Below are positions 1 through 52,127 of a stretch of DNA of 64,000 bases, in pieces. Numbering within the stretch: the first letter of the stretch is position 1; each line of letters begins with the position of its first letter. The notes beneath the pieces were generated by a model that was not told the origin of the DNA, did no database searches, and saw only the letters and a program-made list of their open reading frames with translations. Position numbers and translations under genes: made by a program. Location of the stretch: positions 199,070 through 263,069 of the forward strand of contig DASREM010000056.1 in NCBI GenBank assembly GCA_035652095.1. The letters run 5' to 3'. Source of the DNA: Terriglobales bacterium. GTDB taxonomy: Bacteria > Acidobacteriota > Terriglobia > Terriglobales > Acidobacteriaceae.

Positions 1-114
1 CGCTTTGCCGTCGTAGGCCTCCCCCGCGATTTCGAATTGATCCTGCAAGCTGGCGCGCACGCCGTCCAGGATTAACGCATGATCATCGCCCAGCAACACG
101 CGGATTCGCTTCAT
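1..114 (-). CDS. Response regulator, receiver-domain N-terminus (gene continues beyond window start)
   Basis: Reverse complement of 1-114 reads MKRIRVLLGDDHALILDGVRASLQDQFEIAGEAYDGKA, a typical NarL/FixJ-type receiver N-terminus with the DD acidic pair. It is divergent from the HisKA_3 kinase at 246. Not in the ORF track because it is truncated. Confidence 0.7.
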   Translation of the reverse strand, partial: MKRIRVLLGDDHALILDGVRASLQDQFEIAGEAYDGKA

Positions 115-13294: not shown

Positions 13295-13366
13295 GTTTTT
13301 TCTTCCGATCTCGGGATTTCCTGGGTTCAGTCAGTTATCATTCCCGCGAACAGGCCATTCTCTTCT

Positions 13367-30925: not shown

Positions 30926-30969
30926 GGAGCTCAGTCCGCCCCTGGATATGAGCTCCATTTTTTGTTTTA
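30926..30969 (+). terminator. Rho-independent terminator
   Basis: GGAGCTCA / TGAGCTCC 8-bp stem with a 15-nt loop, followed by ATTTTTTGTTTTAT. The T-tract abuts the stop codon of the convergent sigma-54 activator gene. Confidence 0.6.
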
Positions 30970-32448: not shown

Positions 32449-32632
32449 AACGTGATTAAGCTTACTACGGCGGCACTTGATTTACCCGCGCGCGTCTCAC
32501 CGGCTCATGGAGGCATCGTCCTCCTTGACGCCATGCCGGAGCGGGACCTTCTTGGGCATGAGGACGGAAAGCCTCTTTTGTGCACCCCTTTTTGGGGGAC
32601 GCGGGATCAGAGGTCAGATTTGCGTTTACTTC

Positions 32633-33352: not shown

Positions 33353-33364
33353 GCGGTTTCCCCC

Positions 33365-33862: not shown

Positions 33863-33891
33863 ATGTCCCCCTGCATTCAACGCGATCTCTC

Positions 33892-34251
33892 TCAGATATA
33901 CTGCCAGAGGCACAGCTCGTTACCATCGGGATCATGGAAAAACGAGAGTAGACCTCCGTCTTCCTTCGTTATCGGAGTCGTTGCCACCCCCCTCGCCTGC
34001 AACGCTTCGCTGGCCTCGTGAATATTGGCTGCGCAAAGGCTCAGGCGGGCATTGCCGGTCCCGGTGAGCGCGATGCCGGCGGGGCTGGGCACGAGCTCGA
34101 ACAGGACCCCATTCAAATCGAAGCGCGCGACGTAATCGCGAGAGACCAGTTGCATCCCGAGAATATCGCAATAGAAACGAATGGACCTTTCCATATCGGT
34201 GACGTGGTAATACACGGCATCAAATCTCACATTCAGTTCTGGATTCCCCAT
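33892..34251 (-). CDS. VOC-family (glyoxalase/bleomycin-resistance fold) protein
   Basis: ORF 33892..34281, with start at MGNPELNVRFDAVYYHVTDMERSIRFYCDILGM. Ends ...FFHDPDGNELCLWQY. Confidence 0.75.
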   Translation of the reverse strand: MGNPELNVRFDAVYYHVTDMERSIRFYCDILGMQLVSRDYVARFDLNGVLFELVPSPAGIALTGTGNARLSLCAANIHEASEALQARGVATTPITKEDGGLLSFFHDPDGNELCLWQYI

Positions 34252-34355
34252 GGCGCACACCTGCCATGCATTAGTGTGCATGCATACGTATTAGCTTGTC
34301 TGTGATTGGAAGAAGAGGGTGTTTGTAAACCTCAGTGCGGCGGGAAGTGAATTCG

Positions 34356-35597
34356 TCAGCTCGCGACTTCCACTCCACTCGGGCGCATGATCGGCAGTCG
34401 CACCAGGAATGTTGTACCGCGTCCAGCCGAGCTTTCCACGTCGATTTTCCCGTCATGTTCCTCGACAATCCGCTTGGCCAGCGACAGGCCCAGGCCCGTT
34501 CCATTCCCCTTGGTGGTGTAGAAAGGCCGGAAGATGTTGGGCAGGTGCTCCGGCGCAATGCCGCGCCCAGTATCGGAGACCGCGATTGCGGCGTAACCAC
34601 CATCTTCCGTGATCTCTACCGTGATCGTTCCGTGGCCTTCAATCGCCTGGATGGAATTGAGCAGCAGATTCAGCAGGACCTGGTGAATTTGATCGCTATC
34701 ATGCTCAACTTCGGGAAGCGCAGGGTCCTTCTTGAGTTCAATCTTGATCGCCTTCGACAATGCCTGCTGCCGCGCCAGCATCACCGAATGCTCAACCGTC
34801 GTATTCAGATCGCTGCGCCGAATCTCCGGAGGATGTGGCCGCGCGGTCTGCAGCAGATCGGTGATGATATGGTTGATCTGTGCGATCTCCTGGCGCACAT
34901 CCTTGACTACCGCCCGTGCCGGACTCGTGGATGGCAAGTCGCGTCCGACAATTTCGATCACCCCGGCGATTCCTGCGAGAGGGTTCCGAATTTCATGAGC
35001 TAATCCGGTAGCCAGTTCTCCCAGCGTGGCCAGATGTTCCGCGCGTGACATCTGTGTCTGATGCAAGCGATGGATCTCCTCCCGGCTCTCGCGCAACTGC
35101 TGGACCATGCGGTTGAAATTCCTTCCCAGATCGCCGATTTCGTCATTTCGGGTGTCGAAGCTCACCCGGACGTTCAAGTCTCCTTCGCCAACGTGCCCGA
35201 TCTTTTCCTGGAGCTCTACCATCGGGCGCTGTACAAAGACGGCAAGAACAAAAAGCAGGGCTGCGCAAATGGCGACCGCTCCCGCGCCCGCAACGTAGAG
35301 AACAGTGTGGCGCTCCGTATCGCGCCATGACACCGTCGCCAGCATGAACAACAGCAATCCATTGAACAAGACAAATGCCACGGGAAGGATCGCCTTCAAC
35401 TGCCAATTCACGCGGAAGAACGATACCCCGGAACGCTCTTGGGCCCTTCGCAGGCTGATGTCGCGGCCGGCGCCGGAAGCAGGCGCGATGCCCCGCAACT
35501 TCTCCGAGGCAAAACGGACGGAAGCGGTTCCCGGTTCCGCTTCCGTCCGATTCTGTTGTTCGGAAAGCCGCATTTGCTTTTGATCAAGCATATGCAT
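34356..35597 (-). CDS. Sensor histidine kinase (2 TM with minimal loop, HAMP, HisKA, HATPase_c; NtrB-like)
   Basis: ORF 34356..35726. The start (35597 or 35591) overlaps the ccsA stop. HAMP region [16 protein letters not shown]-box [17 protein letters not shown]...[18 protein letters not shown]. Confidence 0.85.
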
Positions 35598-36984
35598 GCA
35601 ATCCCGACAACAGATACGTAACCCCGAAGAAAGTGAACATGACCACTCCAAAGCCAAGAATGGCGAAGTAGGCTGCACGCCGGCCCCGCCATCCGCGCGT
35701 GATGCGCATGTGCAGATAGCCGGCATAGACCAGCCAGGTGATGGCGGCCCAGGTTTCCTTCGGGTCCCAACTCCAGTACGAGCCCCAGGTGCGGTTCGCC
35801 CAGTAGGCTCCGGCCGCGATCATCAGGGTGAGCAGCGGGAAGGCAATCGCGATCGTCTTGTAGGTGATCCGGTCCAGGTCCTCCGAGGAGGGCAACATTC
35901 TCTCCAGGTCCTGGCGCCGCCACAGCAACAGCAGATACAGGAGCGAGGCGAAAATTCCTCCCACCAGTCCCGACAGGATGAATGGGCTCGCTTGCAGGCT
36001 GGTGGGAAACAGTCCATCCACATCCAGCGATGGATAACGTCCATCACGCACTCGCAGCAGGAAGAACACCAGCGACAGCGCCTGAAGGAGGATGCTTACA
36101 AACACCGCGCGGTTAGCGATCGCCAGGAAGTTCTCATCCTCTTTCAACCGAAAAGCCAGGTAGAGCGCGAATGGTGCCGCCACTGCGACCAGCACTACCA
36201 GCATCAACCAGCCCAGCTCAGGAATGACAACAAAAAGGCGCATGCCCTTGGCCACGAACATTTCAGATTTCTGTTCCGGGTTCCAGCCAATCACGTTCAG
36301 GCCCCCCCACTTTTCGAAGCGGGTCAGGATTCCGGCATAGATGGCAATCGTAAAAAGGCTGGTGGCCGCCAGGAACGTCTCGGTTTTCATCTGATCCTGA
36401 ATGAGAAACATCATGGCCAATGCAAAACTCAGCGCGCAGGCCGCGTAGGCCAGCATGGCTAGAGTCACATGCACGTGCAGCCATGTGGATTGCAGCGCCG
36501 GAACCAGCGGATGGACATCGGTGCGCAGCAATTGCATCAGCACCACGCCAACGATCGCCACCGGCATGGTGACCGTGCCGATCACTTTTACTCCGTACTT
36601 CTTTTCTGCAATGAGCGTCAGGACCGCCAGCGTCCACACGAAACTCAGCAACATTTCGTAGATGCTCGCAAACGGTGGGTGCCCCGCCTCGTACCAGCGG
36701 TGTGCGACCGCCCCAGTATTGGCCAGCAGTCCGGCCCAGGTGGCGAGCGACGCGAAGCGCACATAGGAGGCGACCCCGGTCACTCCGAATCCCAGATACA
36801 GCGAGCCCGCGGCCGCGTAAAAGATCAACGAGGCATAAAGCAGATTGGACTCATTCAGAAGATTGCCGCTCTTCACCACATTCAGAAATGCCATGAAAAG
36901 CAGGAACGCAACACTCAGTCCGACCATCACGACCAGGGTCGTTCCGGTGGCTGCGGGTTGCTGTTCCACTCTTGTACGTGCCAT
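35584..36984 (-). CDS. ccsA: Cytochrome c biogenesis protein CcsA/ResC (System II heme handling)
   Basis: WWD-type tryptophan-rich motif [21 protein letters not shown]. Polytopic membrane protein. AAGGAGGA SD upstream. Starts 19 nt after resB. Confidence 0.9.
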
Positions 36985-37002: not shown

Positions 37003-38460
37003 TTACCGGTTCCCGACTCCGGCCAATGAAGGTTCGTGCTCGTGCTCCGGGATGCACGTTTCTTTTTGCTGCTTCAGTTCCGACTGAATCTCTTCCACCA
37101 GCTTGCGGAACTTGTGTTCGAAAACATCTTTGTTCTTGTTGGCCGCTCCGCCCACCCAGAGTTGCAGGGTGCCATTGGCGTCGTGGACTACCGTTGCCCA
37201 GAACCGCGTGTGAACCAGGTAGAAGACGATCGCCAGTCCGAGCCCCATCAAGATCACGCCTGCCCACACCGCCCATTGACCCGGCTCATGTGAAACCTGC
37301 AGGCCCGTGAAGTAGGCCATCTTCAAATCCTTGGGCTCGAACTTGTACGGCGATGCCGCGTTCTGCTCGAAACCTTCGATCGCCGGAATCCAGTAGTTCA
37401 CCGACTTTCCGGACTTCCTGGATTCGACAATGAGGTGAGCTGCGGGATTGTCTACTTGAGTGGATCGCGTGTAGATCTGTCCGTCTCGCACCACGTAATC
37501 CGGAATAAACTCGGCGAACTTCACCGTGGTGTCCGGATCCAGCTGCGCGACTTCGTCCACATTCAGGCTGATCTCCTGGGTTCCAGCTTTGTCGGAGGTG
37601 GCGTTCAGCACCAGCTTGTCCACCTTGCCGGTCATTCCGTAACTGGATTGATAGAAGCGGATGCCGCCGTAGACCAGGGGATCGTTGACAACGATCTCTT
37701 TGCGCAGAGTGTCGCGGCCGGCGTCCACCACCACCAGCTTCGACCACCATTTCTTGGGCGAGCCGTCGGTGTAATTCTCCTGGCCGGCAGCTTCACATCG
37801 AATGGCGATCGGAAGCACGCGCGTGCTGCCATCGCGCATTTGGACCTGGTTTGAAGTTTCCCCGCGGGTCAAAGAGATAAATCCGCGCCATCCCCAGACC
37901 GCATCCACGATTCCGCCCAGGAAGATGAGCAGCAGGCTGGCGTGGACGATGTAGACCGCGAATTCCGAGATGCGATGTTTTTCGGCGTACAACGAGGTGC
38001 GATGCTCGCTGGTTACGCGCTCTGGTTTCAAGTGCATGCGCCGGAAGGCCCGCTCGGCGGCAGCGATCGCAAACGCTTCGTCGCGGACCGCAAGTCGGAC
38101 CTGGTTTGGAAGCGCTTTCCGGAAAATCTCATCCGTGCTCTTGTAGGGCCGCGCGACGTATCGCCAGGCGTTTGGGAAGCGCTCGATGGATGCCGCGACG
38201 ATGCTGAAGCTCACGGCCACTAACAGCAGCACGAACCACCAGGCATGAAAGATGTCGGTCAGCCCGAGCGCATCCAGCAGCTGCAACATCTGCGGCGAGT
38301 ATGCGCGCTGCATCTCGTCGGGCTCGGTGACGGGCCTCTGAAGAATGATGGTGCCCGCTGCCGAAACGATTACGACCAGGATCAGAAGGATCACGCCGGT
38401 CTTGATCGAACTGACGGTTTGCCAGAATTTGCGACTTGCCCGTGCCAAGCTCCCAGCCAT
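37003..38460 (-). CDS. resB: Cytochrome c biogenesis protein ResB/CcsB (System II)
   Basis: N-terminal FWQTVSSIKTGVILLILVVIVSAAGTII. Large soluble domain and C-terminal TM segments. Position immediately upstream of ccsA is typical. Confidence 0.85.
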   Translation of the reverse strand: MAGSLARASRKFWQTVSSIKTGVILLILVVIVSAAGTIILQRPVTEPDEMQRAYSPQMLQLLDALGLTDIFHAWWFVLLLVAVSFSIVAASIERFPNAWRYVARPYKSTDEIFRKALPNQVRLAVRDEAFAIAAAERAFRRMHLKPERVTSEHRTSLYAEKHRISEFAVYIVHASLLLIFLGGIVDAVWGWRGFISLTRGETSNQVQMRDGSTRVLPIAIRCEAAGQENYTDGSPKKWWSKLVVVDAGRDTLRKEIVVNDPLVYGGIRFYQSSYGMTGKVDKLVLNATSDKAGTQEISLNVDEVAQLDPDTTVKFAEFIPDYVVRDGQIYTRSTQVDNPAAHLIVESRKSGKSVNYWIPAIEGFEQNAASPYKFEPKDLKMAYFTGLQVSHEPGQWAVWAGVILMGLGLAIVFYLVHTRFWATVVHDANGTLQLWVGGAANKNKDVFEHKFRKLVEEIQSELKQQKETCIPEHEHEPSLAGVGNR

Positions 38461-38929: not shown

Positions 38930-38945
38930 CGGCGAGCAGCTTGCA
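38930..38945 (+). promoter_or_regulatory. Candidate sigma-54 (-24/-12) promoter element
   Basis: CGGCGAGCAGCTTGCA has GG and GC separated by the canonical 10 nt and a TTGCA -12 box. It lies only about 22 nt upstream of the GTG at 38967, so the leader would be very short. Confidence 0.25.
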
Positions 38946-38966: not shown

Positions 38967-39776
38967 GTGAAGTACTCGCAGAGAACGCTCCTGATGCTCC
39001 TGATGGTGGTTCTGGCAACTGCCATGCCTTTGGCAGCGACCGAACACCCGGTGAAGCTCGAAAAGGATGCCGACTGCGCCTCCTGCCACGAGGACAAGGC
39101 GAAGGGCAAAGCAGTGCATTCGGCCATCGCCATGGGTTGCACCACTTGTCACGACGTGAAGACCCAGGGCGAAACCACTACAGTGGAATTCACCACCCCC
39201 AAAGATCAGCTCTGTTTCACCTGTCACGAAAAATCCAAGGAAGAAGTTCTTCACGGGCCTTACGAAAAAGGTCAGTGCGTGACTTGTCACGATCCCCACA
39301 CCAGCGACTTCCCCAAGCAGTTGCGAGCTGAGGGCAACCCGCTGTGCCTCGAATGTCATGCCGCCCGCGCCAAGATGGAAGACACGATCAGTCTCTTCGG
39401 CGGCAAGCAGTCCATGTCCAAGGCGGACTTCGAGCAGGCCCCCAAGATCGTTCCCGACACGATGACAAAGAAGGGGCATCCGTTCTCACGTCATCCCATT
39501 GCCGATGTTCCCGACCCGGTGCGGAACGAGAAGATGTCCTGCCTGAGCTGCCATCAATCCCACGCAGGCGCGCAGTCGAAGCTCATCACCACCGCCAAGA
39601 CCAACAACGGCGACATATGCGAGGCGTGCCACCAGACATTCGAAGCCAAAATGCACAACGATATGCAACAGAAGTTCGGCCCCATCGAAGAGAAGAACCG
39701 CAAAGACGTGGAAGACCAGTTCAAGAAACAAGTTCAGGAGCGGCCGGCTGCTCCTCCCAAGAAGGGGTCGAACTAG
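38967..39776 (+). CDS. Heptaheme c-type cytochrome (Cyt A), secreted
   Basis: GTG start preceded by GGCGGAGG. Signal peptide MKYSQRTLLMLLMVVLATAMPLAA. Seven CXXCH motifs: CASCH, CTTCH, CFTCH, CVTCH, CLECH, CLSCH, CEACH. Lys/Glu-rich C-terminal tail. Confidence 0.9.
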   Translation: MKYSQRTLLMLLMVVLATAMPLAATEHPVKLEKDADCASCHEDKAKGKAVHSAIAMGCTTCHDVKTQGETTTVEFTTPKDQLCFTCHEKSKEEVLHGPYEKGQCVTCHDPHTSDFPKQLRAEGNPLCLECHAARAKMEDTISLFGGKQSMSKADFEQAPKIVPDTMTKKGHPFSRHPIADVPDPVRNEKMSCLSCHQSHAGAQSKLITTAKTNNGDICEACHQTFEAKMHNDMQQKFGPIEEKNRKDVEDQFKKQVQERPAAPPKKGSN

Positions 39777-39778: not shown

Positions 39779-40831
39779 ATGAAAAAATTTCACAAGACGC
39801 TGATCAGTACCCTCCTGGGAATCGCAGCCCTGTGGATGCTTCCCCAACCCGCAGCCGCGAAGGACAAGCAGCAGCCCGCCGCTCCCACAAACCTGGTGTG
39901 GCCGTTGCCTCCGGACAAGCCGAGGCTGAAATTTCTGGAGATGATTACCAACAACTTCGATGTCGAACCCAAGAAGAAACTGTCCTGGGTGGACAAGATG
40001 GTCGGCAATGCCGACCCCAACATTCCGGAAACTTTCGAGCGCGCGACCGGAGTGGCGGCCGATTCCAAGGGCCGGGTCTTCGTAGTATCCGCGCAGCGCC
40101 AGATGCTCTACATCATCAGCAAAGAGAAGCATGAGGTCATCCGGGTCCGTGGCGATCGCGGGTTGGTCTTCAAAACTCCCTTGGGAGTGGTGGTGGACTC
40201 GCAGGACAACTTCTATGTTGCCGACGCCAGCCTGGCTTCGGTGATGAAGTTCGACTCGCAAGCGCATCTGCAAGCTGCGATCGGTTCTGATGCCGGGTTG
40301 AAGAACCCGACGTTCCTGGCCCTCGACGAAGGTCGCCGTCGCCTGTTCGTGGTGGATTCCCACCTGCACCAGGTCCTGATCTTCAACCTGGACACGCTGC
40401 AACTGGAGAGCACCGTCGGCAAGCGCGGGGAGAAGCCCGGCCAGTTCAATTACCCGGTCGGGATCGCGGTCGGTCCTGATGGCAGTTTCGCGGTTACCGA
40501 TACCGGAAGTTGCTCGGTCGAAGTCTTCACCGCCGACCTCAAGTTTGTTCGCCGTATCGGACGCCAGGGCACGCGGGCGGGTGAGTTCGTTCGGCCCAAG
40601 GGCATCGCTTATGACAGCGAAGGCCACATCTGGGTCGTGGATTCCGCATTCAACAACGTCCAGATCTTCAACCCGGACGGAAAGCTCCTGATGTTCGTGG
40701 GTTCGCATGGACAGAACGCCGGCGAATTCAGCGTGCCGGTGGGGATCTACATTGACAAGAAAAACCGGGTGTACATCAGCGACAACCTGAACGCCCGGGT
40801 CCAGATTTTCCAGTTCCTGGGAGGGAACTGA
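39779..40831 (+). CDS. NHL-repeat six-bladed beta-propeller protein (NHL-1), secreted
   Basis: ORF 39344..40831. The ATG at 39779 lies 2 nt after the Cyt A stop. Signal peptide MKKFHKTLISTLLGIAALWMLPQPAAA. Repeated blades of the type G.F..P.G[IV]A.D..G...V.D....V..F. Confidence 0.85.
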   Translation: MKKFHKTLISTLLGIAALWMLPQPAAAKDKQQPAAPTNLVWPLPPDKPRLKFLEMITNNFDVEPKKKLSWVDKMVGNADPNIPETFERATGVAADSKGRVFVVSAQRQMLYIISKEKHEVIRVRGDRGLVFKTPLGVVVDSQDNFYVADASLASVMKFDSQAHLQAAIGSDAGLKNPTFLALDEGRRRLFVVDSHLHQVLIFNLDTLQLESTVGKRGEKPGQFNYPVGIAVGPDGSFAVTDTGSCSVEVFTADLKFVRRIGRQGTRAGEFVRPKGIAYDSEGHIWVVDSAFNNVQIFNPDGKLLMFVGSHGQNAGEFSVPVGIYIDKKNRVYISDNLNARVQIFQFLGGN

Positions 40832-40934
40832 CATGAGTTCTGTTCTGCACGTTCGTGCCTTACAGAAATCAACAAGCAGTACTGCTGCAGTAGAACTACG
40901 TTCGAGTTGTACAACTCAAAAAGACGGAGGTCTT

Positions 40935-41636
40935 ATGAAATTCATGACGAAAGTCGGCGTACTGGTACTCCTTGTGGCGCTGGTCACCACGATGGGTTTC
41001 GCCAAGGCGTCGAAGAGTTCCATGGTGAACTCGAAGCACGACCTGCGCTCGACGTATAACGCAGCGACGTTCACGCTGTGTAACTTCTGCCACGTGGCTC
41101 ACAAGACCGTGGCTGACACTTATCCGAGCAACATCGGCCCCTTGCTCTGGAACCACACGCTGTCGAGTGCGACTACATACGGCGTATATACCAGTAATAC
41201 ATTTGCAGCTTATGGGACCGATATCTCGGACCTCGGTCCGCTGAATGCGGGAGCCTACGTAAGCAGCAATCTGTGCCTGAGCTGCCATGACGGAACCGTG
41301 GCGGTCAATTCATGGTATGCACCGCCAGCCTGCCTTCCCACTTATGGGCCTTGCCCGCAGGGCACGACGTTTGTCCCGAACGACGCAAGAGTCACCGATC
41401 TGACCAACACTCACCCGGTGAACTTCACGTACTACGGACAGCCGTGGATCAGTTCTGCGCACGTATTGGCACCCGCCAATGCGAATTTCGTAGATGGCGC
41501 GGGCGAAATCCCACTGGAGACCGGCAAGATGCAGTGCGCGACCTGCCATGACCCGCATAACGGCGGTTCTGGCATCTTCTCGCAGACGTTCCCGACGCAA
41601 GCCAGCGGAACCTTCTGCACCTATTGCCACCTGTAA
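40935..41636 (+). CDS. Tetraheme c-type cytochrome (Cyt B), secreted
   Basis: ORF 40833..41636. ATG at 40935 follows GGAGG. Signal peptide MKFMTKVGVLVLLVALVTTMGFA. Four CXXCH motifs: CNFCH, CLSCH, CATCH, CTYCH. The N-terminal SKHDL...CNFCHVAH module is shared with Cyt C. Confidence 0.85.
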   Translation: MKFMTKVGVLVLLVALVTTMGFAKASKSSMVNSKHDLRSTYNAATFTLCNFCHVAHKTVADTYPSNIGPLLWNHTLSSATTYGVYTSNTFAAYGTDISDLGPLNAGAYVSSNLCLSCHDGTVAVNSWYAPPACLPTYGPCPQGTTFVPNDARVTDLTNTHPVNFTYYGQPWISSAHVLAPANANFVDGAGEIPLETGKMQCATCHDPHNGGSGIFSQTFPTQASGTFCTYCHL

Positions 41637-41644
41637 GTTCATGC

Positions 41645-41669
41645 GAGAGAGGCGCCCGGCGCCTCTCTC
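41645..41669 (+). promoter_or_regulatory. Strong intra-operon hairpin (perfect 12-nt arms) between Cyt B and the barrel gene
   Basis: GAGAGAGGCGCC-C-GGCGCCTCTCTC followed by CTCTTTC. Located 9 nt after the Cyt B stop and 34 nt before the barrel ATG. Confidence 0.5.
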
Positions 41670-41702
41670 CTCTTTCACCCGAGTAAGGAACCGGAGAGGG
41701 AA

Positions 41703-43556
41703 ATGAAATCGGGAAACACAATCCGGATCCTGGTGACGGCGGGCCTTCTCTCCCTGGGTTTGTGCCAGGCCCAGGAACTGCAAGGCTGGCACCTCAGAAG
41801 CACCATCGGGTTCGACTGGTCCAGGGACAGTTTCAATTCCATCAGCAGTACCTTCCCCGAAAACAGCACACCCGCAGGCAGTATCGGCGGCGAGGTGGGA
41901 ATGGACCTCAGCGGCATCGTGATGGATCCGAAGTTCCTCACCTTTGACAGCAATTTCAACTTTTCTCACAATGCAATCTCCACCGGGGCGACCGATTACG
42001 GCGATGGATTGCTGAGTGGAGGAATTAACCTCAGTGCGCTGCCCGGCAGCCATTACCCGCTTGAGGTTTACTACCAGCGCAGCGGTGCCGATACCAACGG
42101 TGATCTGTTCGGGTCCAATACCAACACCGCGCAATTCCGGGTTCGCGAGACCCTCGACTTCAGAAACGTGCCCCACATTGTTCTCGCTTACAACCAGAAC
42201 AGCAACGACGTGAAACTGGTGACCTCGCTGACCGACACCAGCTACAAGCAATCCGACGTGGGCATTCAGGCCAACGACCGCACCGCCGGTTGGTCCTGGA
42301 ATGCGGGATTCAATGTTGGGAAGTTCGATTCGACGGCCATTGGCGACCTGGCCCTCGCCGGAGATACGCACCAGGACTACCGCACCCTCGACGCTCGCGC
42401 GTACCGCTCGCTGTTTTCAGGTAAGGGAGTTCTCAGTTCGGACTTTTACAAGCAACATTATTCTTTCGACTTCCCCGGAACCGGCACCTCGCTGACCGAT
42501 AGCCTGTTGCTCTCCGAGAGTCTGATGGTGCAGCACACGGAGAAGCTCTCGACACACTATTCGTACTCCCTGTCGCGCCAGAGCGTGGTGAATGACTTCA
42601 CGCCTGCTCCAGGAGGCTTGACGGTCCTGAATCTGCCCGCCCTGAACTCGCATACGGTGAGTACCGGGGTGGACTACCAGTGGTTTAAGCCCATCCGCGT
42701 GTTTGAAACTGTCCGCTACGATCGCCTGTCGCCTTTTTCCGACACCTTCGAATCGCAGACTTCCTATCTGCAATCGTCGTCAGGGGTTACGCTGCAAAAG
42801 AGATTTCGCGGCTTCGACGTTAACGCCACCTATGCAGGCCAATTCCAGAGGCTGGGAACCAACCTGGAAAATTTCGGGAACACGTTCTCCAGCAACGTGG
42901 ACGCCCGCATCGGATGGGGGGATGTGAAGAAGCTGCACGTGGCCGGTACTTACCGCTACAACCGGCTGAATTTCGTGCAGCAACTCGGCGGCTTCACCCG
43001 GTACAAAATCGCCGGCGTGGAGGCGGAGACCACTCGATTCTGGGGCGTGCGCCTGCGCGGCGGAGTCGAGCATGGCAGCGTGGACATCCTCAATATCTCT
43101 GGCGACACTTCCCGCTCCTACAATAATGTGAGTTTTGCGCTGGAGTCCCGCCGCTACCAGTTCATGGCCAGCAGGGGCATGGAAGATGGCGCTGGCTCGA
43201 TTTTCCCAAACCCGCTGATCGGTCAGTTCTTTATCGCTACGCCGCTTCCGGTTTCGCAGTTGATTGGGACCCCACTTCTGAATCGGAATACTACCAGCAC
43301 CAACTTCAGCTTCACCGGACGCCCGAAGAACAACCTCCAGATCACCGCGTTCTTCCGCAAGGAAAATGATCTACTGTTCAGTTCGACGCAGGATTACCGG
43401 CTATGGGAAGTTCGTGGACAATACAATATTGGTCGCATCAGCATTGATGCCGGAGTAGGGAACATCCGGACGACGATCGATCAGCAGAACAATCTGAGCG
43501 GATTGGCAATCAATCGCTACTGGTTCCGCATCCGCAGGACATTCAACTTTTTCTGA
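41703..43556 (+). CDS. Large outer-membrane beta-barrel-like protein (617 aa)
   Basis: GGAGAGGGAA SD upstream. Signal peptide MKSGNTIRILVTAGLLSLGLCQA. Alternating-hydrophobicity, Gly/Ser/Asn/Tyr-rich sequence. C-terminus ...RIRRTFNFF has the terminal aromatic typical of OMPs. No recognisable enzymatic motif. Confidence 0.65.
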   Translation: MKSGNTIRILVTAGLLSLGLCQAQELQGWHLRSTIGFDWSRDSFNSISSTFPENSTPAGSIGGEVGMDLSGIVMDPKFLTFDSNFNFSHNAISTGATDYGDGLLSGGINLSALPGSHYPLEVYYQRSGADTNGDLFGSNTNTAQFRVRETLDFRNVPHIVLAYNQNSNDVKLVTSLTDTSYKQSDVGIQANDRTAGWSWNAGFNVGKFDSTAIGDLALAGDTHQDYRTLDARAYRSLFSGKGVLSSDFYKQHYSFDFPGTGTSLTDSLLLSESLMVQHTEKLSTHYSYSLSRQSVVNDFTPAPGGLTVLNLPALNSHTVSTGVDYQWFKPIRVFETVRYDRLSPFSDTFESQTSYLQSSSGVTLQKRFRGFDVNATYAGQFQRLGTNLENFGNTFSSNVDARIGWGDVKKLHVAGTYRYNRLNFVQQLGGFTRYKIAGVEAETTRFWGVRLRGGVEHGSVDILNISGDTSRSYNNVSFALESRRYQFMASRGMEDGAGSIFPNPLIGQFFIATPLPVSQLIGTPLLNRNTTSTNFSFTGRPKNNLQITAFFRKENDLLFSSTQDYRLWEVRGQYNIGRISIDAGVGNIRTTIDQQNNLSGLAINRYWFRIRRTFNFF

Positions 43557-43566
43557 TAGGTGGGCC

Positions 43567-44649
43567 TTGAGTTTATTGACTATTTCGCGCCGGCGGCTCT
43601 TCTGGACAGCGGGAATCGCGTTTGTACTGGCGACACTGTGGTCGTGGCCGGCCAGCGACGCCGCCTCCAAGCCCCCGGAGGTTTTGTTGCCCGCGCAGCT
43701 GGAATGGGTCGGCACGTTGCGCAGCGCCGCTGATGTTACTCCGAAGCCGGGCTTCTTCAAAAAGATGGTGAAGAAGATCGTCGGCCTTGATGACCGCGAT
43801 CGCGCCATGCTCATGCCCTATGGCATCGCTGTGGACTCGCAGGGGCGGGTGCTGGTTGTGGATACCCGCGAACGCCAGGTGCACGTCTTCGATGCGCAGC
43901 GCAAGAAGTACAAGACCTTCCACGCTCCCGATCGTGATCCCTTTGCCGCTCCCATCGCCATCGATACCGACGCCGAAGGCAGGATTTACGTCTCCGATTC
44001 GGTGCGCGCGCGAATCTTCGTATTCACCCCCGACTTCAAGTTTGTCCGCACCCTGGGCGCGATCAGTAAAGATGAGAGTATCTTCAAGCGCTGCACCGGG
44101 CTGGCGATCGATAGGGGACAAGGCAAGCTGTACGTGGTCGACACCGTTGCCATGAACGTGGTGACGATGACGCTGGATGGCAAGGTCCTGGGCCGGATGG
44201 GCAAGCCAGGGGACGGTCCGCTTGAATTCAATTACCCAACCCAGATCGCGGTAGCGCCGGACAGTTCGCTGTGGGTGATGGACTCCCTGAACTTCCGGGT
44301 GCAGCACCTCGATGCCAACGGCACGGTTCTTTCCGCGTTTGGACGCCTGGGCGACAGCATCGGCGATTTCGATAAGCCGAAGGGCATCTCGCTTGATAAC
44401 CAGGGCCGCGTCTACGTGGTCGAAGGACGCAACGACCGCGTTCAGGTCTACAGCCCGGAAGGGAAGCTGTTGTTCTTCTTCGGGCGTACCGGCAATGCCG
44501 ATGGAGAGTTTTTCCTTCCCACCGGCATCACGGTGGACCGCGAAAACAAGATTTACGTCGCCGATAGCTACAACCGCCGCGTCGCCATCTTTCATGCCAA
44601 GCCAGGCGCGGACGGCGGAATGTTCTCCGGGCCCGCGGGAGGACAGTGA
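43567..44649 (+). CDS. NHL-repeat six-bladed beta-propeller protein (NHL-2), paralogue of NHL-1
   Basis: TTG start assumed, as there is no upstream ATG. The N-terminus ISRRRLFWTAGIAFVLATLW has an RR-containing n-region. The blades align with NHL-1, for example GKPGDGPLEFNYPTQIAV versus GEKPGQFNYPVGIAV, and FDKPKGISLDNQGRVYVV versus FVRPKGIAYDSEGHIWVV. Confidence 0.8.
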   Translation: MSLLTISRRRLFWTAGIAFVLATLWSWPASDAASKPPEVLLPAQLEWVGTLRSAADVTPKPGFFKKMVKKIVGLDDRDRAMLMPYGIAVDSQGRVLVVDTRERQVHVFDAQRKKYKTFHAPDRDPFAAPIAIDTDAEGRIYVSDSVRARIFVFTPDFKFVRTLGAISKDESIFKRCTGLAIDRGQGKLYVVDTVAMNVVTMTLDGKVLGRMGKPGDGPLEFNYPTQIAVAPDSSLWVMDSLNFRVQHLDANGTVLSAFGRLGDSIGDFDKPKGISLDNQGRVYVVEGRNDRVQVYSPEGKLLFFFGRTGNADGEFFLPTGITVDRENKIYVADSYNRRVAIFHAKPGADGGMFSGPAGGQ

Positions 44650-46532
44650 TGCGGCTTCGGCTGGCCTTCATACTCGCGCTAGTGATGGCGGCGGTGGTGG
44701 TGGGGCGGCTTTCCGCTGCCCGGAACAAGCAATTCATCGCCAACACCAAGCACGATTTCCGGATCACCTCGGGGGCAGGCATCCGCTCCACGTCGAAGCA
44801 GGATGTCTGCATGTTTTGCCATACTCCGCATAACGCCGGGCCGCCCACGACCGGGATGTGGAACCGGAAACTTTCGCAGCGTGAATTTCCCGGCTACAAC
44901 AGCAGCACGCTTCAGTCCACCATCACCCCGATCAATGCGCAGGACGCATCGAAACTCTGCCTGAGCTGCCATGATGGCACCATCGCGCTTGGCGACACAC
45001 AGAACGAGGGATTGATCCAGTTCGTGCAGGGGGCGAGTTACACCTTGCCTCCCAACTCGACGGCGAACCTGGTGGGGGCAAACGGAACCTTTGCCGACGA
45101 TCATCCATTTGGCTTCGTTCCAAGGCGAACCGCAGACATTCACGATCCACCGCCGGGCGATGCGGTGCATCTCGACAGCAGCGGCAAAGTGCAGTGCACC
45201 AGTTGTCATGATCCACACCAGGAGTCGATTGATTCAGTGTCGGACAAATTCCTGGTCAAGTCGAATGACTCCTCTCTGCTTTGCCAGAGCTGCCATTCCA
45301 CGCAGGGCTGGGCAAGGTCGTCCCATTCCCGACCGCCCGACCTGGCCGAGGACCTGCGCTACACCAGCACGCAGGGCGCGCATACCGGCTATACGGGCGT
45401 GGGAAAAAATGGATGCGAGAGTTGTCACCGGCCGCATTCCGCGCAAGTGGGCCAGCGGCTTCTGAAATTAGCCGAAGAGAATACCTGTTACCAATGCCAC
45501 GATGGGTCGGTCACCACGATCGGCATCAAGAACGAGTTCGTGAAGACCTACCGCCACCCGGTGCAGACTGTCTCGGGTATACACGACGATTCCGAGAGCC
45601 CGACGTCCGCGCTGTACCCGATGCCGGAAATCAGCCCCGGTGCGGTGCGCCATGCCGAGTGCATGGATTGTCACAATGCCCACTATGCCAATAACACTCC
45701 GGGACAGGCGCCAGTGGTAAGCGGCTCAGTGCTGGGAGTGAAAGGCCAGTCGCAGGGGAACACCTTCCTGCCAATCGCGAGGAACGAATACGAGATCTGC
45801 TTCAAATGTCACGCTGACAGCGCCAATCGTCCGCAGGCGACTGACACGGGCACGGGCGGAATCGGCTTTGGAAGAAATCCGCAGCGCCAGTTCGACGCGG
45901 GAAATCCGAACAAGGGCAACGCTCGCGTGGAGTTTTCTTTCGGCGTGTCGTACCACCCGGTAGTGCGCCCGGCGAGCCTCTCGAGCGGCGTGGGGGGAAT
46001 GGTGCCCAGCCTGCGCCCAGCTCCGGTCAGTCCCGGTGGGCTTGCGCTTCCGAATCGTACGCTGTCTTCCTCCAGCTACATCTACTGCACGGATTGTCAT
46101 AACAGCGACACGGGACGGAACCTGGGAGTGGGGACTTCGGGCGCATCCGGCCCGCACGCCTCCAACATTGCCCATCTGCTCGAGCGGCAGAACATGCTGG
46201 AACCGCCACCCGCGCTGCCGGGCAAGAGTTCGGCAGGCGTGCCCTTTTCGGTCAGCAACTATGGGCTCTGCGACAAGTGTCACGACGTGCAGAACAGCAT
46301 CCTGCGAGACGTGAGCTTCAAGTATCACAGCACGCACACGCAGCAGGACGGCGCATCGTGCTCCACCTGCCATGATCCGCACTCGTCGTCTTCTCCGATG
46401 CTGATCAATTTTGACTTGAGCATCGTGGCGCCGAACAGCGCGGGTCAACTCGCTTTCGTGCAGAGCGGCCCCCGGCATGGCAGCTGCAGTCTCAGCTGCC
46501 ACGGGCAAGACCATAAGAGTTCCACCTACTGA
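44646..46532 (+). CDS. Large multiheme c-type cytochrome (Cyt C; 11 CXXCH + 1 CX3CH)
   Basis: The start (GTG 44646 or ATG 44649) overlaps the NHL-2 stop. Signal/anchor MMRLRLAFILALVMAAVVVGRLSAA. CXXCH motifs: CMFCH, CLSCH, CTSCH, CQSCH, CESCH, CYQCH, CMDCH, CFKCH, CTDCH, CDKCH, CSTCH. Terminal CSLSCH. Many are of the C..CH.PH / C..CHD type, as in doubled-CXXCH cytochromes. Confidence 0.9.
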   Translation: MMRLRLAFILALVMAAVVVGRLSAARNKQFIANTKHDFRITSGAGIRSTSKQDVCMFCHTPHNAGPPTTGMWNRKLSQREFPGYNSSTLQSTITPINAQDASKLCLSCHDGTIALGDTQNEGLIQFVQGASYTLPPNSTANLVGANGTFADDHPFGFVPRRTADIHDPPPGDAVHLDSSGKVQCTSCHDPHQESIDSVSDKFLVKSNDSSLLCQSCHSTQGWARSSHSRPPDLAEDLRYTSTQGAHTGYTGVGKNGCESCHRPHSAQVGQRLLKLAEENTCYQCHDGSVTTIGIKNEFVKTYRHPVQTVSGIHDDSESPTSALYPMPEISPGAVRHAECMDCHNAHYANNTPGQAPVVSGSVLGVKGQSQGNTFLPIARNEYEICFKCHADSANRPQATDTGTGGIGFGRNPQRQFDAGNPNKGNARVEFSFGVSYHPVVRPASLSSGVGGMVPSLRPAPVSPGGLALPNRTLSSSSYIYCTDCHNSDTGRNLGVGTSGASGPHASNIAHLLERQNMLEPPPALPGKSSAGVPFSVSNYGLCDKCHDVQNSILRDVSFKYHSTHTQQDGASCSTCHDPHSSSSPMLINFDLSIVAPNSAGQLAFVQSGPRHGSCSLSCHGQDHKSSTY

Positions 46533-50309: not shown

Positions 50310-52127
50310 ATGAATCCAATTGTGTCCCCCGTCCGCGAAGACTCCTCTAGTGCGGCCCGTCGCCCTGGCCGGCCCACCTGCTCGCTCCTGATCATCACCG
50401 CAGTGTGGCTTGTGATTTACGCGGGAAGTATTTTCAGTCCTGCCCTGCTGGACGATGCAGATTCGGTGCACGCGGAAGCCGCCCGCGAAATCCTTCTTCG
50501 GCACGACTGGGTTACGCTGCATATCGATGGCCTGCGATACCTGGAGAAAGCCCCCTTGATGTACTGGGGCATCGCATCCAGCTTCTTGACTTTCGGGGTT
50601 GCGGAATGGAGCGCGAGGTTGCCCCTTGTTCTTGGTGTGCTTGCCTCGCTGCTGGCCGTGTACGCCTTTGGCCGAAAAGCTTACGGCGAACCGGGCGGCT
50701 TCTGGTCGGCCATGGTGATGGCTACTGCGATCGGTCCTTATCTGTTCACCCGGTTCCTGATTCCCGATGTTCTGGTCGGGCTTTGGCTGACTCTCACCTT
50801 CTTATTTTTTCTTGAGACGCTGAAAGATGATGCTCCCTCTCGTCTCGCATGCTGGGGCATGGCGGCTGCGACCGCGCTCAACGTGCTCACCAAAGGACTG
50901 ATTGGCGTCGTCTTTCCAATTGCAGTGATTGGACTGTTCCTGCTGGTGACAGGAAATTTAAAGCACTTGCTTCGTTTGAGATTGGTTTCCAGCACGTTGG
51001 TGTTCCTTGCCATTGGAGCGCCTTGGCATATCCTGGCGGCCCTTCGCAATCCGGACCAAGGTGGTGTTCGGGGTTTCCTCTGGTTTTACTTCGTCAACGA
51101 GCACTTCATGCGCTACCTGAACAAACGGATTCCCCGCGATTACGACACCGTGCCTTTTCTGGTCTTCTGGGGATTGCTCTTGGTGTGGGTTTTTCCCTGG
51201 AGCGCATTTCTTCCGCAGGCGCTGCGTGAGGTTCCGTGGCGCCACCTAAGATCCAGGTTAACAAGAGCGCAGATGGCAAACCTGCTCTGCTTGCTATGGG
51301 CCTTGGTCATCCTGGTTTTCTTCAGCTTTTCCAGCCGTCAGGAGTACTACACCATTCCGGCATTGCCGGCGCTGGCGCTGCTGGTCGGAGGATGGCTTGG
51401 CCGAACCGCGAAAGAGCATAATGCCGGAGTCCGCGCGTCTCTCATTCTGTTTGTGATCGGAAGCGTTGCTGCTGTCGCTGCGTTTGTTGTGCTTGTTTTG
51501 TCGCAGCCTCCGCCACCCGGAGTCGAGCTGGCGAGTCTGCTCAACATGAGAAGCGCACAGGACTATGCCCTTAGTTTTGACCATATCTTCGACCTGACTC
51601 CTCAGGCGTTCGGGATGTTTCGCGCCCCTTTGCTGGGGACGGCCCTGGGGTTGTTTGCCGGCACCGGCTTGAACTGGTGGCTCCGCCGCCGCAACCTGCA
51701 CAGGGCAGGGAATTATGCGTTGGCCGGAATGATGATGGTTCTGCTGTTTTGTGTTCATTCCGCCCTGGTCACGTTTTCACCCATTCTGTCGTCGAAGCAG
51801 CTTGCGCTGGCCATCAAGCCCCACCTGGCACCGTCCGATGAGGTTGTGATCGACGGTGAATATGAACAAGGCTCCACGCTGAATTTTTATCTTGGAGTTC
51901 CGGTTCGCGTGCTGCACGAAAGGTCTGCGAACCTCTATTACGGGTCACTATTTCCGGATGCGCCGGATGTGTTCGAAACGCAAGAAACCTTTTTGCGGTT
52001 GTGGGATGGTCCCCGGCGCGTGTTCCTGTGGACGAGCGAGAAAGACCCGAAAGCGCTTCGCAACGCCTCCAGCTTTCTGGTAGCGCACAGTGGCGGCAAA
52101 TCTGTGTTTACCAATCAGCCGCTTTGA
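50310..52127 (+). CDS. ArnT/PMT-like glycosyltransferase (GT39/GT83, PMT_2 domain)
   Basis: LLDDADSVHAEAAREIL...YLEKAPLMYW is the typical first periplasmic loop of ArnT-like GT-C enzymes. More than 10 TM segments and a C-terminal soluble domain. Confidence 0.75.
   Translation: MNPIVSPVREDSSSAARRPGRPTCSLLIITAVWLVIYAGSIFSPALLDDADSVHAEAAREILLRHDWVTLHIDGLRYLEKAPLMYWGIASSFLTFGVAEWSARLPLVLGVLASLLAVYAFGRKAYGEPGGFWSAMVMATAIGPYLFTRFLIPDVLVGLWLTLTFLFFLETLKDDAPSRLACWGMAAATALNVLTKGLIGVVFPIAVIGLFLLVTGNLKHLLRLRLVSSTLVFLAIGAPWHILAALRNPDQGGVRGFLWFYFVNEHFMRYLNKRIPRDYDTVPFLVFWGLLLVWVFPWSAFLPQALREVPWRHLRSRLTRAQMANLLCLLWALVILVFFSFSSRQEYYTIPALPALALLVGGWLGRTAKEHNAGVRASLILFVIGSVAAVAAFVVLVLSQPPPPGVELASLLNMRSAQDYALSFDHIFDLTPQAFGMFRAPLLGTALGLFAGTGLNWWLRRRNLHRAGNYALAGMMMVLLFCVHSALVTFSPILSSKQLALAIKPHLAPSDEVVIDGEYEQGSTLNFYLGVPVRVLHERSANLYYGSLFPDAPDVFETQETFLRLWDGPRRVFLWTSEKDPKALRNASSFLVAHSGGKSVFTNQPL

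Follow-up and report, generated by a model that had tools for sequence, protein, structure and literature searches.

The two NHL beta-propellers encoded in the 64,000-nucleotide stretch of DNA analyzed here (the window) are probably accessory proteins of an OmcE-type filament/porin system, in which they may serve as non-catalytic binders of client cytochromes. The operon in which they lie is very likely related, though diverged, to the omcE cluster of Geobacter/Desulfuromonas, with a second half that corresponds to the EET1 core of peat Acidobacteriota.

The operon and its two propellers

The operon has the order CytA (7 haems)-NHL1-CytB (4)-barrel (617 aa)-NHL2-CytC (12). Its genes and those flanking it are as follows.

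30967-32448, - strand: sigma-54 response regulator (Pfam)
34356-35726, - strand: HAMP histidine kinase (Pfam)
35584-36984, - strand: CcsA, system II cytochrome c maturation (Pfam Cytochrom_C_asm, E 2.2e-48)
37003-38460, - strand: ResB, system II cytochrome c maturation (Pfam ResB, E 7.6e-84)
38967..39776, + strand: CytA, 269 aa, Sec-exported 7-haem c-type cytochrome with 7 CxxCH
39779..40831, + strand: NHL-1, 350 aa, Sec-exported six-bladed NHL beta-propeller without lipobox or haem motif
40935..41636, + strand: CytB, 233 aa, OmcE-family tetrahaem cytochrome, candidate filament subunit
41703..43556, + strand: barrel, 617 aa, outer-membrane beta-barrel of ~26-28 strands, Sec signal, C-terminal ...FNFF
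43567..44649, + strand: NHL-2, 360 aa, TTG start, Sec-exported NHL beta-propeller, predicted six-bladed, paralogue of NHL-1
44646..46532, + strand: CytC, 12-haem cytochrome with 11 CxxCH and a C-terminal CX4CH
50310..52127, + strand: PMT_2 (GT39/ArnT-like) glycosyltransferase, downstream of the cluster (Pfam PMT_2, E 1.9e-12)

Both propellers score far above the cutoff of 20 bits for Pfam NHL (PF01436; NHL-1, 104.4 bits, E 1.2e-30; NHL-2, 105.7 bits, E 4.5e-31) and also match DUF5128, the "6-bladed beta-propeller" family (PF17170; 54 and 57.8 bits, respectively; cutoff 22.9). BLASTP aligns the two colinearly over 339 aa with 32% identity (E 2e-54), and they share blade motifs, one pair being FNYPVGIAV in NHL-1 and FNYPTQIAV in NHL-2 and another being FVRPKGIAYDSEGHIWVV in NHL-1 and FDKPKGISLDNQGRVYVV in NHL-2. 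The sequence-only reading had called two paralogous six-blade propellers and quoted these motifs, and on both points it was right. The AlphaFold2 model of NHL-1 (pLDDT 94.6, pTM 0.88) has 24 strands, that is, 6 blades of 4, with blade 6 closed by the N-terminal strand 49-56, and its closest PDB folds by Foldseek are the NHL domains of Thin, TRIM2, TRIM3, and TRIM71, which bind macromolecules (TM 0.82-0.87; top structures include 6xg7, 7qrw, and 7qrv). The colinear alignment with NHL-1 suggests the same six-blade fold for NHL-2.

The residues invariant across 88 propeller homologues are the repeat Gly, Asp, Pro, Lys, Arg, and Phe; no His, Cys, Ser, or metal triad is invariant among them. Membership in the catalytic NHL-like families (PAL, SGL/lactonase, Vgb lyase, and ScyF) was considered and rejected, ScyF reaching 140 and 179 bits (cutoff 350) and Vgb_lyase 17.8 and 26.3 bits (cutoff 50). 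These observations bear on a possible enzymatic function, such as that of a lyase- or lactonase-like propeller whose target is a substrate or a modification of the cytochromes. Weak Pfam/NCBIfam overlaps with SGL, Arylesterase, Vgb_lyase, and ScyF, together with the occurrence of PAL (3fvz) among the fold matches, point in that direction, but every such family match is sub-threshold or a partial repeat, the best folds are non-enzymatic NHL domains, and the 88 homologues lack a conserved catalytic residue of the kinds named, which makes an enzymatic function highly improbable. From the range of roles proposed at the outset (scaffold, chaperone, substrate-binding, or catalytic subunit), a non-catalytic partner or scaffold is the most reasonable; most likely, the propellers are non-catalytic adaptors or assembly partners.

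Both propellers carry export signals, with cleavage regions ...PQPAAA|KDK in NHL-1 and ...PASDAA|SKP in NHL-2. The suggestion that NHL-2 might have a Tat-like n-region did not hold up: orthologues whose mature parts are ~80% identical have SRTRLLW, SRARFLW, SNKQFVW, SKRRVGW, or SKKGMAG at the SRRRLFW site, so that the twin RR is found in the window's NHL-2 only (RT, RA, NK, KR, or KK elsewhere) and the conserved S/T-R-R-x-F-L-K motif is missing. Because the RR is not conserved, the signal reads as an ordinary Sec signal peptide. Neither propeller has a lipobox, Cys being absent from the cleavage site in both (there is one Cys in the whole protein). The homologous propellers of Desulfuromonadia, in contrast, are lipoproteins with AGC, GGC, or SGC lipoboxes, and membrane tethering therefore differs between the two groups.

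Where the propellers act is relevant to two further explanations. They might be filament morphology or anti-aggregation factors, located outside the cell or at its surface, like OscD of the OmcS companion cluster; OscD is described as propeller-like, a likeness of description, with a proposed influence on the morphology of OmcS nanowires (PMC13194489, citing Shen et al. 2025), and the propellers DFE_0451 and DFE_0463 of D. ferrophilus were detected among extracellular proteins. This seems improbable, as the lipoprotein nature of the Desulfuromonadia homologues is easier to reconcile with the cell envelope than with the medium and the propellers show no specific sequence feature that would point to such a role. 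[quoted passage not shown] We regard this as quite improbable, since the barrel is the sole outer-membrane route for a folded 35-kDa propeller and since two propeller clades strictly locked to two cytochrome types (see below) speak for protein partners rather than an external ligand.

Cytochromes, barrel, and flanking genes

The cytochromes tie the operon to OmcE. CytB has a single sequence match in the PDB, Geobacter OmcE (7tfs_A, E 1.7e-8, residues 5-232 against 5-230), and its haem ligands, 8 Cys and 8 His (H35, H53, H56, H118, H160, H205, H208, and H232), are invariant with Geobacter OmcE and relatives. CytC consists of a complete OmcE-like module of four haems at the N terminus and an extension with 8 more: its residues 2-217 align colinearly with the entire CytB (29% identity, E 1e-17) and its head aligns with Geobacter OmcE (28.5% identity, E 5e-18). 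The head keeps all 8 His ligands, and OmcE, CytB-type proteins, and CytC heads share the 8 Cys and 8 His invariantly; CytC has no lipobox. CytA matches Pfam Paired_CXXCH_1 (E 7.5e-29) and shares 30-35% identity with both multihaem cytochromes that precede the omcE propeller in Geobacter (E 4e-20 and 2.5e-19).

Pfam and NCBIfam searches gave no family for the barrel. Its AF2 model (pLDDT 81) is all-beta with 28 strand elements, and the closest PDB fold is MtrB (6r2q_B, E 6.7e-12, TM 0.54/0.51). Profile comparison with the Geobacter omcE-cluster barrel detected no homology (hhalign probability 1.9%); position and fold are those expected of a large outer-membrane barrel after omcE, and a haem-less ORF of 560-660 aa occupies the barrel position in all related loci.

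ResB and CcsA are transcribed divergently from the cluster, and their adjacency recurs in 15 close loci and in the Geobacter omcE locus. The histidine kinase and the response regulator are likely the cluster's dedicated regulators; homologous genes adjoin the cluster in close loci, and in loci of Ignavibacteria and Bacteroidota they lie directly upstream of it. The DNA comes from a soil metagenome, for which no RNA runs were found.

Conservation, phylogeny, and proposed role

Gene order is kept in 80 related loci, and the adjacency of NHL and cytochrome genes is accordingly conserved, as the sequence-only reading had expected. A 4-haem gene is next in 72 of 83 NHL1-type cases from these loci, and a gene with at least 8 haems (11-12-haem) is next in 55 of 70 NHL2-type cases, the remainder being mostly contig ends; NHL-2 orthologues with 50-84% identity occupy the same position in close loci. 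By comparison, the cytochrome upstream of NHL1 varies, with 7, 8, 12, 16, or 21 haems, and other loci have instead a 23-haem gene that is encoded on the other strand or lies at another place. CytA is the cluster's variable "large/periplasmic" multihaem partner. The proposal of a 1:1 pairing of each propeller with a cytochrome stands insofar as the association with cytochromes is conserved, but the constant neighbor of NHL-1 is the downstream CytB and not CytA.

A single tree branch (SH-aLRT 99) parts all NHL1-type from all NHL2-type genes, that is, the two context classes; the genes come from Acidobacteriota, Ignavibacteriota, and Bacteroidota and from a single MAG of Pseudomonadota. The duplication is therefore old, and a recent local event is not supported. 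The propellers of the Desulfuromonadia omcE cluster form the sister group (100/98) of the NHL1-type clade (99/85). The Geobacter propeller directly upstream of omcE is 31% identical to NHL-1 over 325 aa (E 2e-51) and 31% identical to NHL-2 (E 1e-44), and NHL-1 is, on sequence grounds, orthologue-like to this lipoprotein. The second propeller of Desulfuromonadia is an independent duplicate with no OmcE-headed cytochrome after it. Judging from the aligned sequences, what was anciently duplicated was probably the whole cassette of propeller plus OmcE-fold cytochrome.

It is possible, though we propose it tentatively, that each of the two non-catalytic propellers is specialized for the one OmcE-fold client encoded directly downstream. 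NHL-1 and NHL-2 would be Sec-exported binding proteins acting in the periplasm near the outer membrane, the client of NHL-1 being the tetrahaem filament subunit CytB and that of NHL-2 the OmcE-headed 12-haem CytC. They would hold or orient their clients and pass them to the 617-aa barrel; the haem chain would exit the cell through this barrel or on it, with CytA supplying periplasmic electrons. The analysis shows homology, synteny, fold, export signals, an old split, and the lack of a conserved catalytic site, whereas such physical contacts, their location, and filament formation by the window's system are inferred. The absence of an OmcE-headed client behind the second Desulfuromonadia propeller means that a rule of one propeller per OmcE-fold client is not universal.

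The missing lipobox and the lack of detected homology to the Geobacter barrel run against this reading, and so does gene spacing: NHL-1 is coupled to the upstream CytA and separated by ~100 nt from CytB, a coupling that would suit a complex of CytA and NHL1 in 1:1 ratio. The last position of CytA is 39776 and the NHL-1 ATG is at 39779, a gap of 2 nt (TAG CC ATG); AGGTGG precedes the TTG start of NHL-2, whose TGA stop overlaps that of the CytC start codons (GTG 44646 / ATG 44649). Both spacings had been pointed out from the sequence, and the coupling is kept in ~32-37 close relatives (median gaps, 2 nt [-4..41] for CytA to NHL1 and -1 nt for NHL2 to CytC), where CytB has spacers of ~100 nt before and ~79 nt after it; the gap from barrel to NHL2 is 11 nt.

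It is accordingly conceivable, if less likely than not, that the propellers are static 1:1 scaffolds, along the lines of the sequence-only reading and the EET1 preprint, NHL-1 with CytA and NHL-2 with CytC, forming permanent parts of a porin-cytochrome conduit with no role in filament assembly. The tight coupling in relatives suggests equimolar synthesis, the barrel fold is MtrB-like, and propellers such as BamB are permanent scaffold lipoproteins; in the accessible part of the EET1 preprint, multimer models of membrane-spanning complexes are presented as well (bioRxiv 10.64898/2026.05.27.727921). Against static scaffolds, the upstream cytochrome is inconstant (7-21 haems, or a 23-haem gene that is divergent or downstream), whereas adjacency of NHL1 to the tetrahaem gene is constant, Geobacter included, and with a bona fide OmcE homologue among its genes the operon would build more than a simple conduit. 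Residual covariation of distance matrices, which is confounded by probable recombination of the cluster's middle block, is negative for CytA-NHL1 (-0.15), again against static scaffolds; its strongest signal is for CytA-NHL2 (r 0.82) and not for NHL2-CytC (0.34), which runs against the proposed clients.

A bolder version of the client-binding reading, which we consider doubtful, is that the cluster builds a heteromeric wire by chaperone-usher-like logic from the duplicated cassette of propeller and OmcE-fold cytochrome. Chaperone-usher pili, BamB, and LptE offer accessory-protein analogies for the propellers. The resemblance lies in the gene logic, in which a major polymerizing subunit, set between longer spacers, is accompanied by a large barrel and by binding proteins dedicated to it in the periplasm; there is no homology to any of the three, the comparison being pure analogy, and we know of no cytochrome with a donor-strand mechanism. 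NHL-1 would cap the unsatisfied haem and His arm of the periplasmic CytB monomer, preventing premature polymerization, and NHL-2 would cap CytC likewise. The OmcE head of CytC could then dock on one end of the CytB polymer via the conserved inter-subunit His-haem link, and its 8-haem tail could plug the wire into the barrel and CytA, as base or cap. An initiator and an anchor are not apparent in omcE operons (mBio 2026, PMC13712944); if true, the wire would supply candidates for both.

Comparison with known systems

By sequence, an Mtr/Pcc conduit was rejected: the barrel has no family, the DmsE-family match of CytA is sub-threshold (65.7 bits; TIGR03508 cutoff, 192.2), CytC lacks a lipobox, and the OmcA/MtrC model reaches 21 bits against a cutoff of 209. 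The likeness is limited to the barrel fold (MtrB). The remark that NHL proteins fall outside the described Mtr and Pcc conduits is narrowly true, but propellers beside multihaem cytochromes are well documented (PMC13712944; PMC5815863; PMC5539420; bioRxiv 10.1101/2022.05.06.490989; and the accessible part of bioRxiv 10.64898/2026.05.27.727921).

Exported six-bladed NHL propellers are conserved beside multihaem cytochromes in the SEEP-SRB1/Desulfuromonadales core operon, which combines a six-bladed propeller with 16-haem and 26-haem cytochromes and a PPIase (PMC5539420), and in D. ferrophilus, where DFE_0451 and DFE_0463, likened here to the window's propellers by description and not by sequence, adjoin multihaem cytochromes (DFE_0448-0451 / 0461-0465; PMC5815863, PMC8322314). 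These propellers are proposed to stabilize an outer-membrane cytochrome complex (PMC5539420, PMC5815863, PMC8322314). The window differs in having another cytochrome set, with neither the PPIase nor the 16/26-haem pair. The Uet cluster of Tenderiales/Gallionella, with the NHL proteins UetH and UetI (bioRxiv 10.1101/2022.05.06.490989, PMC10734462), likewise combines, by description, a pair of NHL propellers with a porin and cytochromes in a single cluster next to CcsA/CcsB, but its cytochromes are an undecahaem and trihaem c7-type ones, it also encodes a cupredoxin and a PPIase, and it serves electron uptake.

A closer match comes from peat Acidobacteriota: EET1, whose "Porin-NHL-CytC" core occurs in 49 MAGs and has transcripts in situ, equals, as described by Fiorito et al. 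(bioRxiv 10.64898/2026.05.27.727921), the window's barrel-NHL2-CytC. Its cytochrome is a 13-haem OmcE-like one, and its NHL is proposed as a scaffold, the same scaffold hypothesis as considered here. Both are from Terriglobales (the window's relatives carry Terriglobales labels), and they share an MtrB-like porin with 6R2Q as top PDB match, a Sec-exported NHL/DUF5128 propeller with 6XG7 as best fold, and an extracellular 12-13-haem "OmcE-like" cytochrome. The accessible text, however, describes a three-gene core with one NHL and calls the system convergent and "entirely divergent in sequence"; it mentions neither the upstream half (CytA-NHL1-tetrahaem OmcE) nor NHL paralogy nor homology to the omcE cluster.

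The omcE nanowire cluster of Desulfuromonadia, known from G. sulfurreducens (OmcE filament, PDB 7tfs) and D. soudanensis, carries "two beta-propeller lipoproteins" (Petersen et al., mBio 2026, PMC13712944), and GT2, GT4, and GT39 genes are commonly downstream of it (PMC13712944). The Geobacter locus reads ResB-CcsA-MHC-MHC-NHL (lipoprotein)-OmcE-752-aa barrel-GTs, and the core order MHC-NHL-OmcE-barrel is common to the window. Both have an OmcE-family tetrahaem cytochrome that keeps all 16 haem-ligand residues, immediately preceded by a homologous NHL propeller and immediately followed by a large barrel without haems. Two more multihaem cytochromes (in the window, CytA with 7 haems and CytC with 12), the two-propeller state, ResB/CcsA alongside, and a glycosyltransferase nearby complete the likeness. 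The differences are that Acidobacteriota lie outside the five phyla listed in PMC13712944, that the propellers are lipoproteins in Desulfuromonadia but not in the window, that the barrel has 617 aa rather than 713-752 aa with no sequence homology detected, and that ResB/CcsA are divergent rather than co-oriented. Moreover, the window's second propeller is of another, older lineage, and the gene after it encodes a 12-haem cytochrome with an OmcE head, a protein missing from the Desulfuromonadia loci examined. The cluster type has already been described in papers of 2025-2026, so the window's cluster belongs to a known system, to which it adds a soil acidobacterial case.

An operon built around an OmcE homologue

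The two NHL beta-propellers of the window, NHL-1 and NHL-2, lie with three cytochromes and a haem-less barrel protein in a compact plus-strand operon:

38967-39776, + strand: CytA, cytochrome with 7 CxxCH motifs
39779-40831, + strand: NHL-1, NHL propeller
40935-41636, + strand: CytB, cytochrome with 4 CxxCH motifs
41703-43556, + strand: barrel, 617 aa, haem-less, with a signal peptide and a C terminus ending in ...FNFF
43567-44649, + strand: NHL-2, NHL propeller with a TTG start
44646/44649-46532, + strand: CytC, cytochrome with 11 CxxCH motifs and a C-terminal CSLSCH

Genes for ResB, CcsA, a HAMP histidine kinase and a sigma-54 response regulator are upstream and divergent, and a PMT_2 glycosyltransferase is encoded downstream. 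The kinase-regulator pair (30967-35726) accompanies the cluster across phyla (L038, L041, L049, L051, L052, L056, L060, L064 and L066), and in Ignavibacteria and Bacteroidota loci it is on the same strand, directly upstream of the cluster. A GG-N10-GC/TTGCA element lies at 38931-38945, ~22-36 nt 5' of the CytA start. The source is a soil metagenome and the relatives are labeled Terriglobales; a search of sequencing runs found the stretch in one DNA run from a soil metagenome and in no RNA run.

The sole PDB sequence match of CytB is chain A of 7tfs, the Geobacter tetrahaem filament subunit OmcE (E 1.7e-8, full length), and that chain, used as a query, retrieved a Geobacter sulfurreducens protein with 98% identity. 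The Geobacter locus runs purHDE, a c7 cytochrome, ResB, CcsA, 9-haem and 8-haem cytochromes, a propeller that is a 361-aa NHL lipoprotein, OmcE, a 752-aa family-less barrel, and glycosyltransferases; the core order of multihaem cytochrome, NHL protein, OmcE homologue and barrel is thus common to this omcE cluster and the window. The Geobacter propeller is 31% identical to each of NHL-1 (E 2e-51) and NHL-2 (E 1e-44), and CytA resembles Geobacter multihaem cytochromes (E 4e-20 and 2.5e-19). Eight Cys and exactly eight His are invariant in an alignment that combines OmcE and three more homologues (Desulfuromonadia-type and gammaproteobacterial) with CytC heads and CytB-type proteins; the His are those of the four CxxCH motifs and four further ones. 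Between the two barrels hhalign detected no homology, and only an MtrB-like fold is common to them.

Among the glycosyltransferases of Desulfuromonadia omcE loci there is also a gene for a membrane protein of 500-521 aa that contains the motif NTFFNQWTYDD (L081:14191-15693, L084:10850-12415), located in L084 between omcE and a second propeller; neither copy has a Pfam match on record.

Two propeller clades and their cytochrome neighbors

The sequence-only reading had described NHL-1 and NHL-2 as paralogs with common blade motifs. Both indeed exceed the Pfam NHL and DUF5128 thresholds and contain those motifs, and they align colinearly over 339 residues (32% identity, E 2e-54). An NHL-1 profile, run against species-representative genomes, found 390 relatives, and the comparison used the best 80 loci. 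Among these best 80 of 390, the six-gene order is intact in every close locus whose contig is long enough to show it, with ortholog identities of 51-74% for NHL-1 and 50-84% for NHL-2. Distant loci, from Bryobacterales/Solibacteraceae, Ignavibacteriota, Bacteroidota and one gammaproteobacterial MAG, follow the pattern propeller (NHLa), 4-haem cytochrome, barrel-sized haem-less ORF, second propeller (NHLb), 11/12-haem cytochrome.

Propellers of the NHL-1 kind are followed by a tetrahaem gene in 72/83 cases and those of the NHL-2 kind by a gene with at least 8 haems in 55/70, the remainder being mostly contig ends. In a tree of 152 sequences, a single branch (SH-aLRT 99) splits all 72 tetrahaem-preceding propellers from all 54 that precede at least 8 haems, once two rows with a truncated CytC are masked. 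A careful 72-sequence tree places the Desulfuromonadia omcE-cluster propellers (100/98) as sister to the NHL1-type clade (99/85). The second propeller of L084, a Desulfuromonadia-like metagenome locus, is a duplicate inside the Desulfuromonadia group, so that the two-propeller state arose more than once and the NHL-1/NHL-2 split is old. A local duplication, for which a phylogeny had been proposed as the check, is ruled out as a recent event by these trees.

In L014, the closest relative, CytC is followed by a further OmcE-like tetrahaem gene (L014:16993-17706, 69% identity to CytB), and L026 carries the NHL-cytochrome-barrel-NHL-cytochrome unit in two tandem copies (L026:440-6924 and 9920-14885). 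Seven Solibacteraceae-type loci (L043, L055, L059, L061, L067, L068 and L072) have a third, highly divergent propeller after the 11-haem gene, which forms a separate long-branched clade (100/100). Copies of the whole cluster with 60-71% identity also occur in MAGs assigned to Chlamydiota, Chloroflexota ("Limnocylindrales"), Bacillota and Actinomycetota (L001, L018, L021 and L022); these are more likely mis-binned acidobacterial contigs than cases of transfer.

Within the operon, histories are discordant. CytA, CytB, NHL-2 and CytC are closest to those of L014 (82%, 70%, 84% and 86% identity), while NHL-1, 67% identical to its L014 counterpart, groups with the L001 type (70% identity; support 98/83). 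On this comparison, NHL-1 seems to have been replaced or to have evolved faster, and the barrel perhaps too. Distance-matrix (mirror-tree) covariation returned the modules {CytA, NHL2} and {NHL1, CytB, barrel}. We set this analysis aside for partner assignment as uninformative on contacts, because the NHL-1 history is discordant and recombination of the contiguous middle block can suffice to produce the pattern without physical contact.

Each propeller had been proposed as the partner of the cytochrome to which its gene is coupled, NHL-1 with CytA and NHL-2 with CytC. The coupling itself is real (a 2-nt gap and an overlap, respectively) and conserved, with median gaps of 2 nt and -1 nt in 32-35 close relatives. 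The coupling on which the NHL-1/CytA pairing rests is, however, lineage-limited: the cytochrome upstream of NHL1-type genes has 7, 8, 12, 16 or 21 haems, and in Bryobacterales/Solibacteraceae-type loci its counterpart, with 23 haems, is encoded downstream or on the other strand. By gene order, the universal neighbor of NHL1-type genes is instead the OmcE homologue, in Geobacter likewise.

CytC residues 2-217 align with the whole of CytB (29% identity, E 1e-17) such that all four haem sites coincide, and this head matches Geobacter OmcE more strongly (E 5e-18) than CytB does (E 5e-15). Since CytB and the CytC head are both OmcE-fold, each propeller is followed by an OmcE-fold module, which suggests ancestral duplication of a propeller-plus-OmcE-fold pair. 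In CytC (44646-46532), a complete OmcE-like four-haem module (~2-217), which retains all 8 His ligands, is joined to an 8-haem extension whose last motif is an atypical CX4CH (CSLSCH). We regard the protein as a candidate for the base, cap or anchor of an OmcE-type polymer, a component for which omcE operons were reported to have no apparent candidate (PMC13712944).

The OmcE-like gene is set apart by spacers of ~100 nt before and ~79 nt after it (577 and 163 nt in Geobacter), as would suit a major subunit that is strongly expressed and tuned on its own. At 41645-41669, immediately past the CytB stop and ahead of the barrel gene, there is a perfect GC-rich palindrome (GAGAGAGGCGCC/GGCGCCTCTCTC); together with the conserved ~79-nt spacer, it fits a putative partial terminator raising the ratio of subunit to machinery, as happens after pilin genes.

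Fold, export and putative role of the propellers

The six-blade layout recognized from sequence is borne out by an AlphaFold2 model of NHL-1 (pLDDT 94.6, pTM 0.88), with six four-stranded blades, the sixth completed by the N-terminal strand 49-56. Its closest PDB folds are the NHL domains of Thin, TRIM2, TRIM3 and TRIM71, so that the predicted fold is that of macromolecule-binding NHL domains. Neither propeller sequence has a haem motif or a lipobox, in contrast to the Desulfuromonadia omcE-cluster propellers, which are lipoproteins. Because these relatives are lipoproteins, the Sec-exported propellers are predicted to sit at the outer membrane, on its periplasmic side. Tat export of NHL-2, suggested by its SRRRLFW n-region, was rejected, as the RR becomes RT, RA, NK, KR or KK in orthologues.

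A catalytic role is less likely and was also rejected: the invariant residues among 88 propeller homologues are the Gly, Asp, Pro, Lys, Arg and Phe of the repeat motif, with no conserved catalytic residues, and all scores of NHL-1 and NHL-2 against enzyme-type families are sub-threshold. In a loop-class analysis, conserved B-C loop residues were clade-specific only (10/24, none common to both clades); as a test of face-specific conservation this is weak because top and bottom were assigned by convention, not from coordinates.

Taking the lack of catalytic residues and the sub-threshold enzyme scores together with the NHL-domain fold, Sec export and lipoprotein relatives, we tentatively favor a reading, at somewhat less than even odds, in which NHL-1 and NHL-2 would be dedicated non-catalytic adaptors or assembly helpers acting on OmcE-fold proteins at the barrel. 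The main rival, in which the propellers are permanent 1:1 scaffold subunits, seems to us somewhat less probable, and surface binding and control of morphology are less likely still.

Relation to the omcE and EET1 clusters

The discussion of PMC13712944 names as unsettled how cytochrome nanowires get out of the cell and what starts, anchors and stops them, and the propellers are constant yet uncharacterized members of nanowire clusters. The present analysis offers a testable rule, that one propeller clade always precedes the tetrahaem subunit and the other always an OmcE-headed 12-haem protein, and therefore narrows the search for the propellers' clients. This may be of use in picking targets for Geobacter genetics and in the ecology of electron transfer to solid or humic acceptors of soils and peat.

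Reports that associate NHL propellers with multihaem cytochromes go back to 2017-2018 (PMC5539420, PMC5815863). The composition found in the window is that of published omcE clusters, which adjoin resB/ccsB and frequently have GT2, GT4 and GT39 genes after them (PMC13712944); the locus extends the set of true OmcE homologue, propeller and barrel to Terriglobales soil bacteria. The "Porin-NHL-CytC" cluster EET1 of peat Acidobacteriota is described in a preprint as an MtrB-like porin (best match 6R2Q), a Sec-exported NHL "scaffold" (6XG7) and a 13-haem, extracellular, "OmcE-like" cytochrome, transcribed through peat profiles; that description presents the system as convergent with Mtr and mentions one NHL only (bioRxiv 10.64898/2026.05.27.727921). 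For our model of the window's barrel (pLDDT 81, ~28 strands), the best-matching fold is MtrB 6r2q_B, the same as for the EET1 porin, and from this and the described parts, barrel-NHL2-CytC is the EET1 core as the preprint describes it. EET1 would thereby be tied by homology to the omcE family.

Publications of 2025-2026 describe the two-propeller omcE cluster and the acidobacterial Porin-NHL-CytC core (PMC13712944; bioRxiv 10.64898/2026.05.27.727921), and the window locus adds one more to already described cluster types. Judged against those descriptions, three points appear to go beyond them: EET1 and omcE are linked by homology, with a true tetrahaem OmcE present in Terriglobales; NHL-1 and NHL-2 are split deeply, each locked to its own putative OmcE-fold client; and the 12-haem protein with an OmcE head is a candidate for the base or cap.
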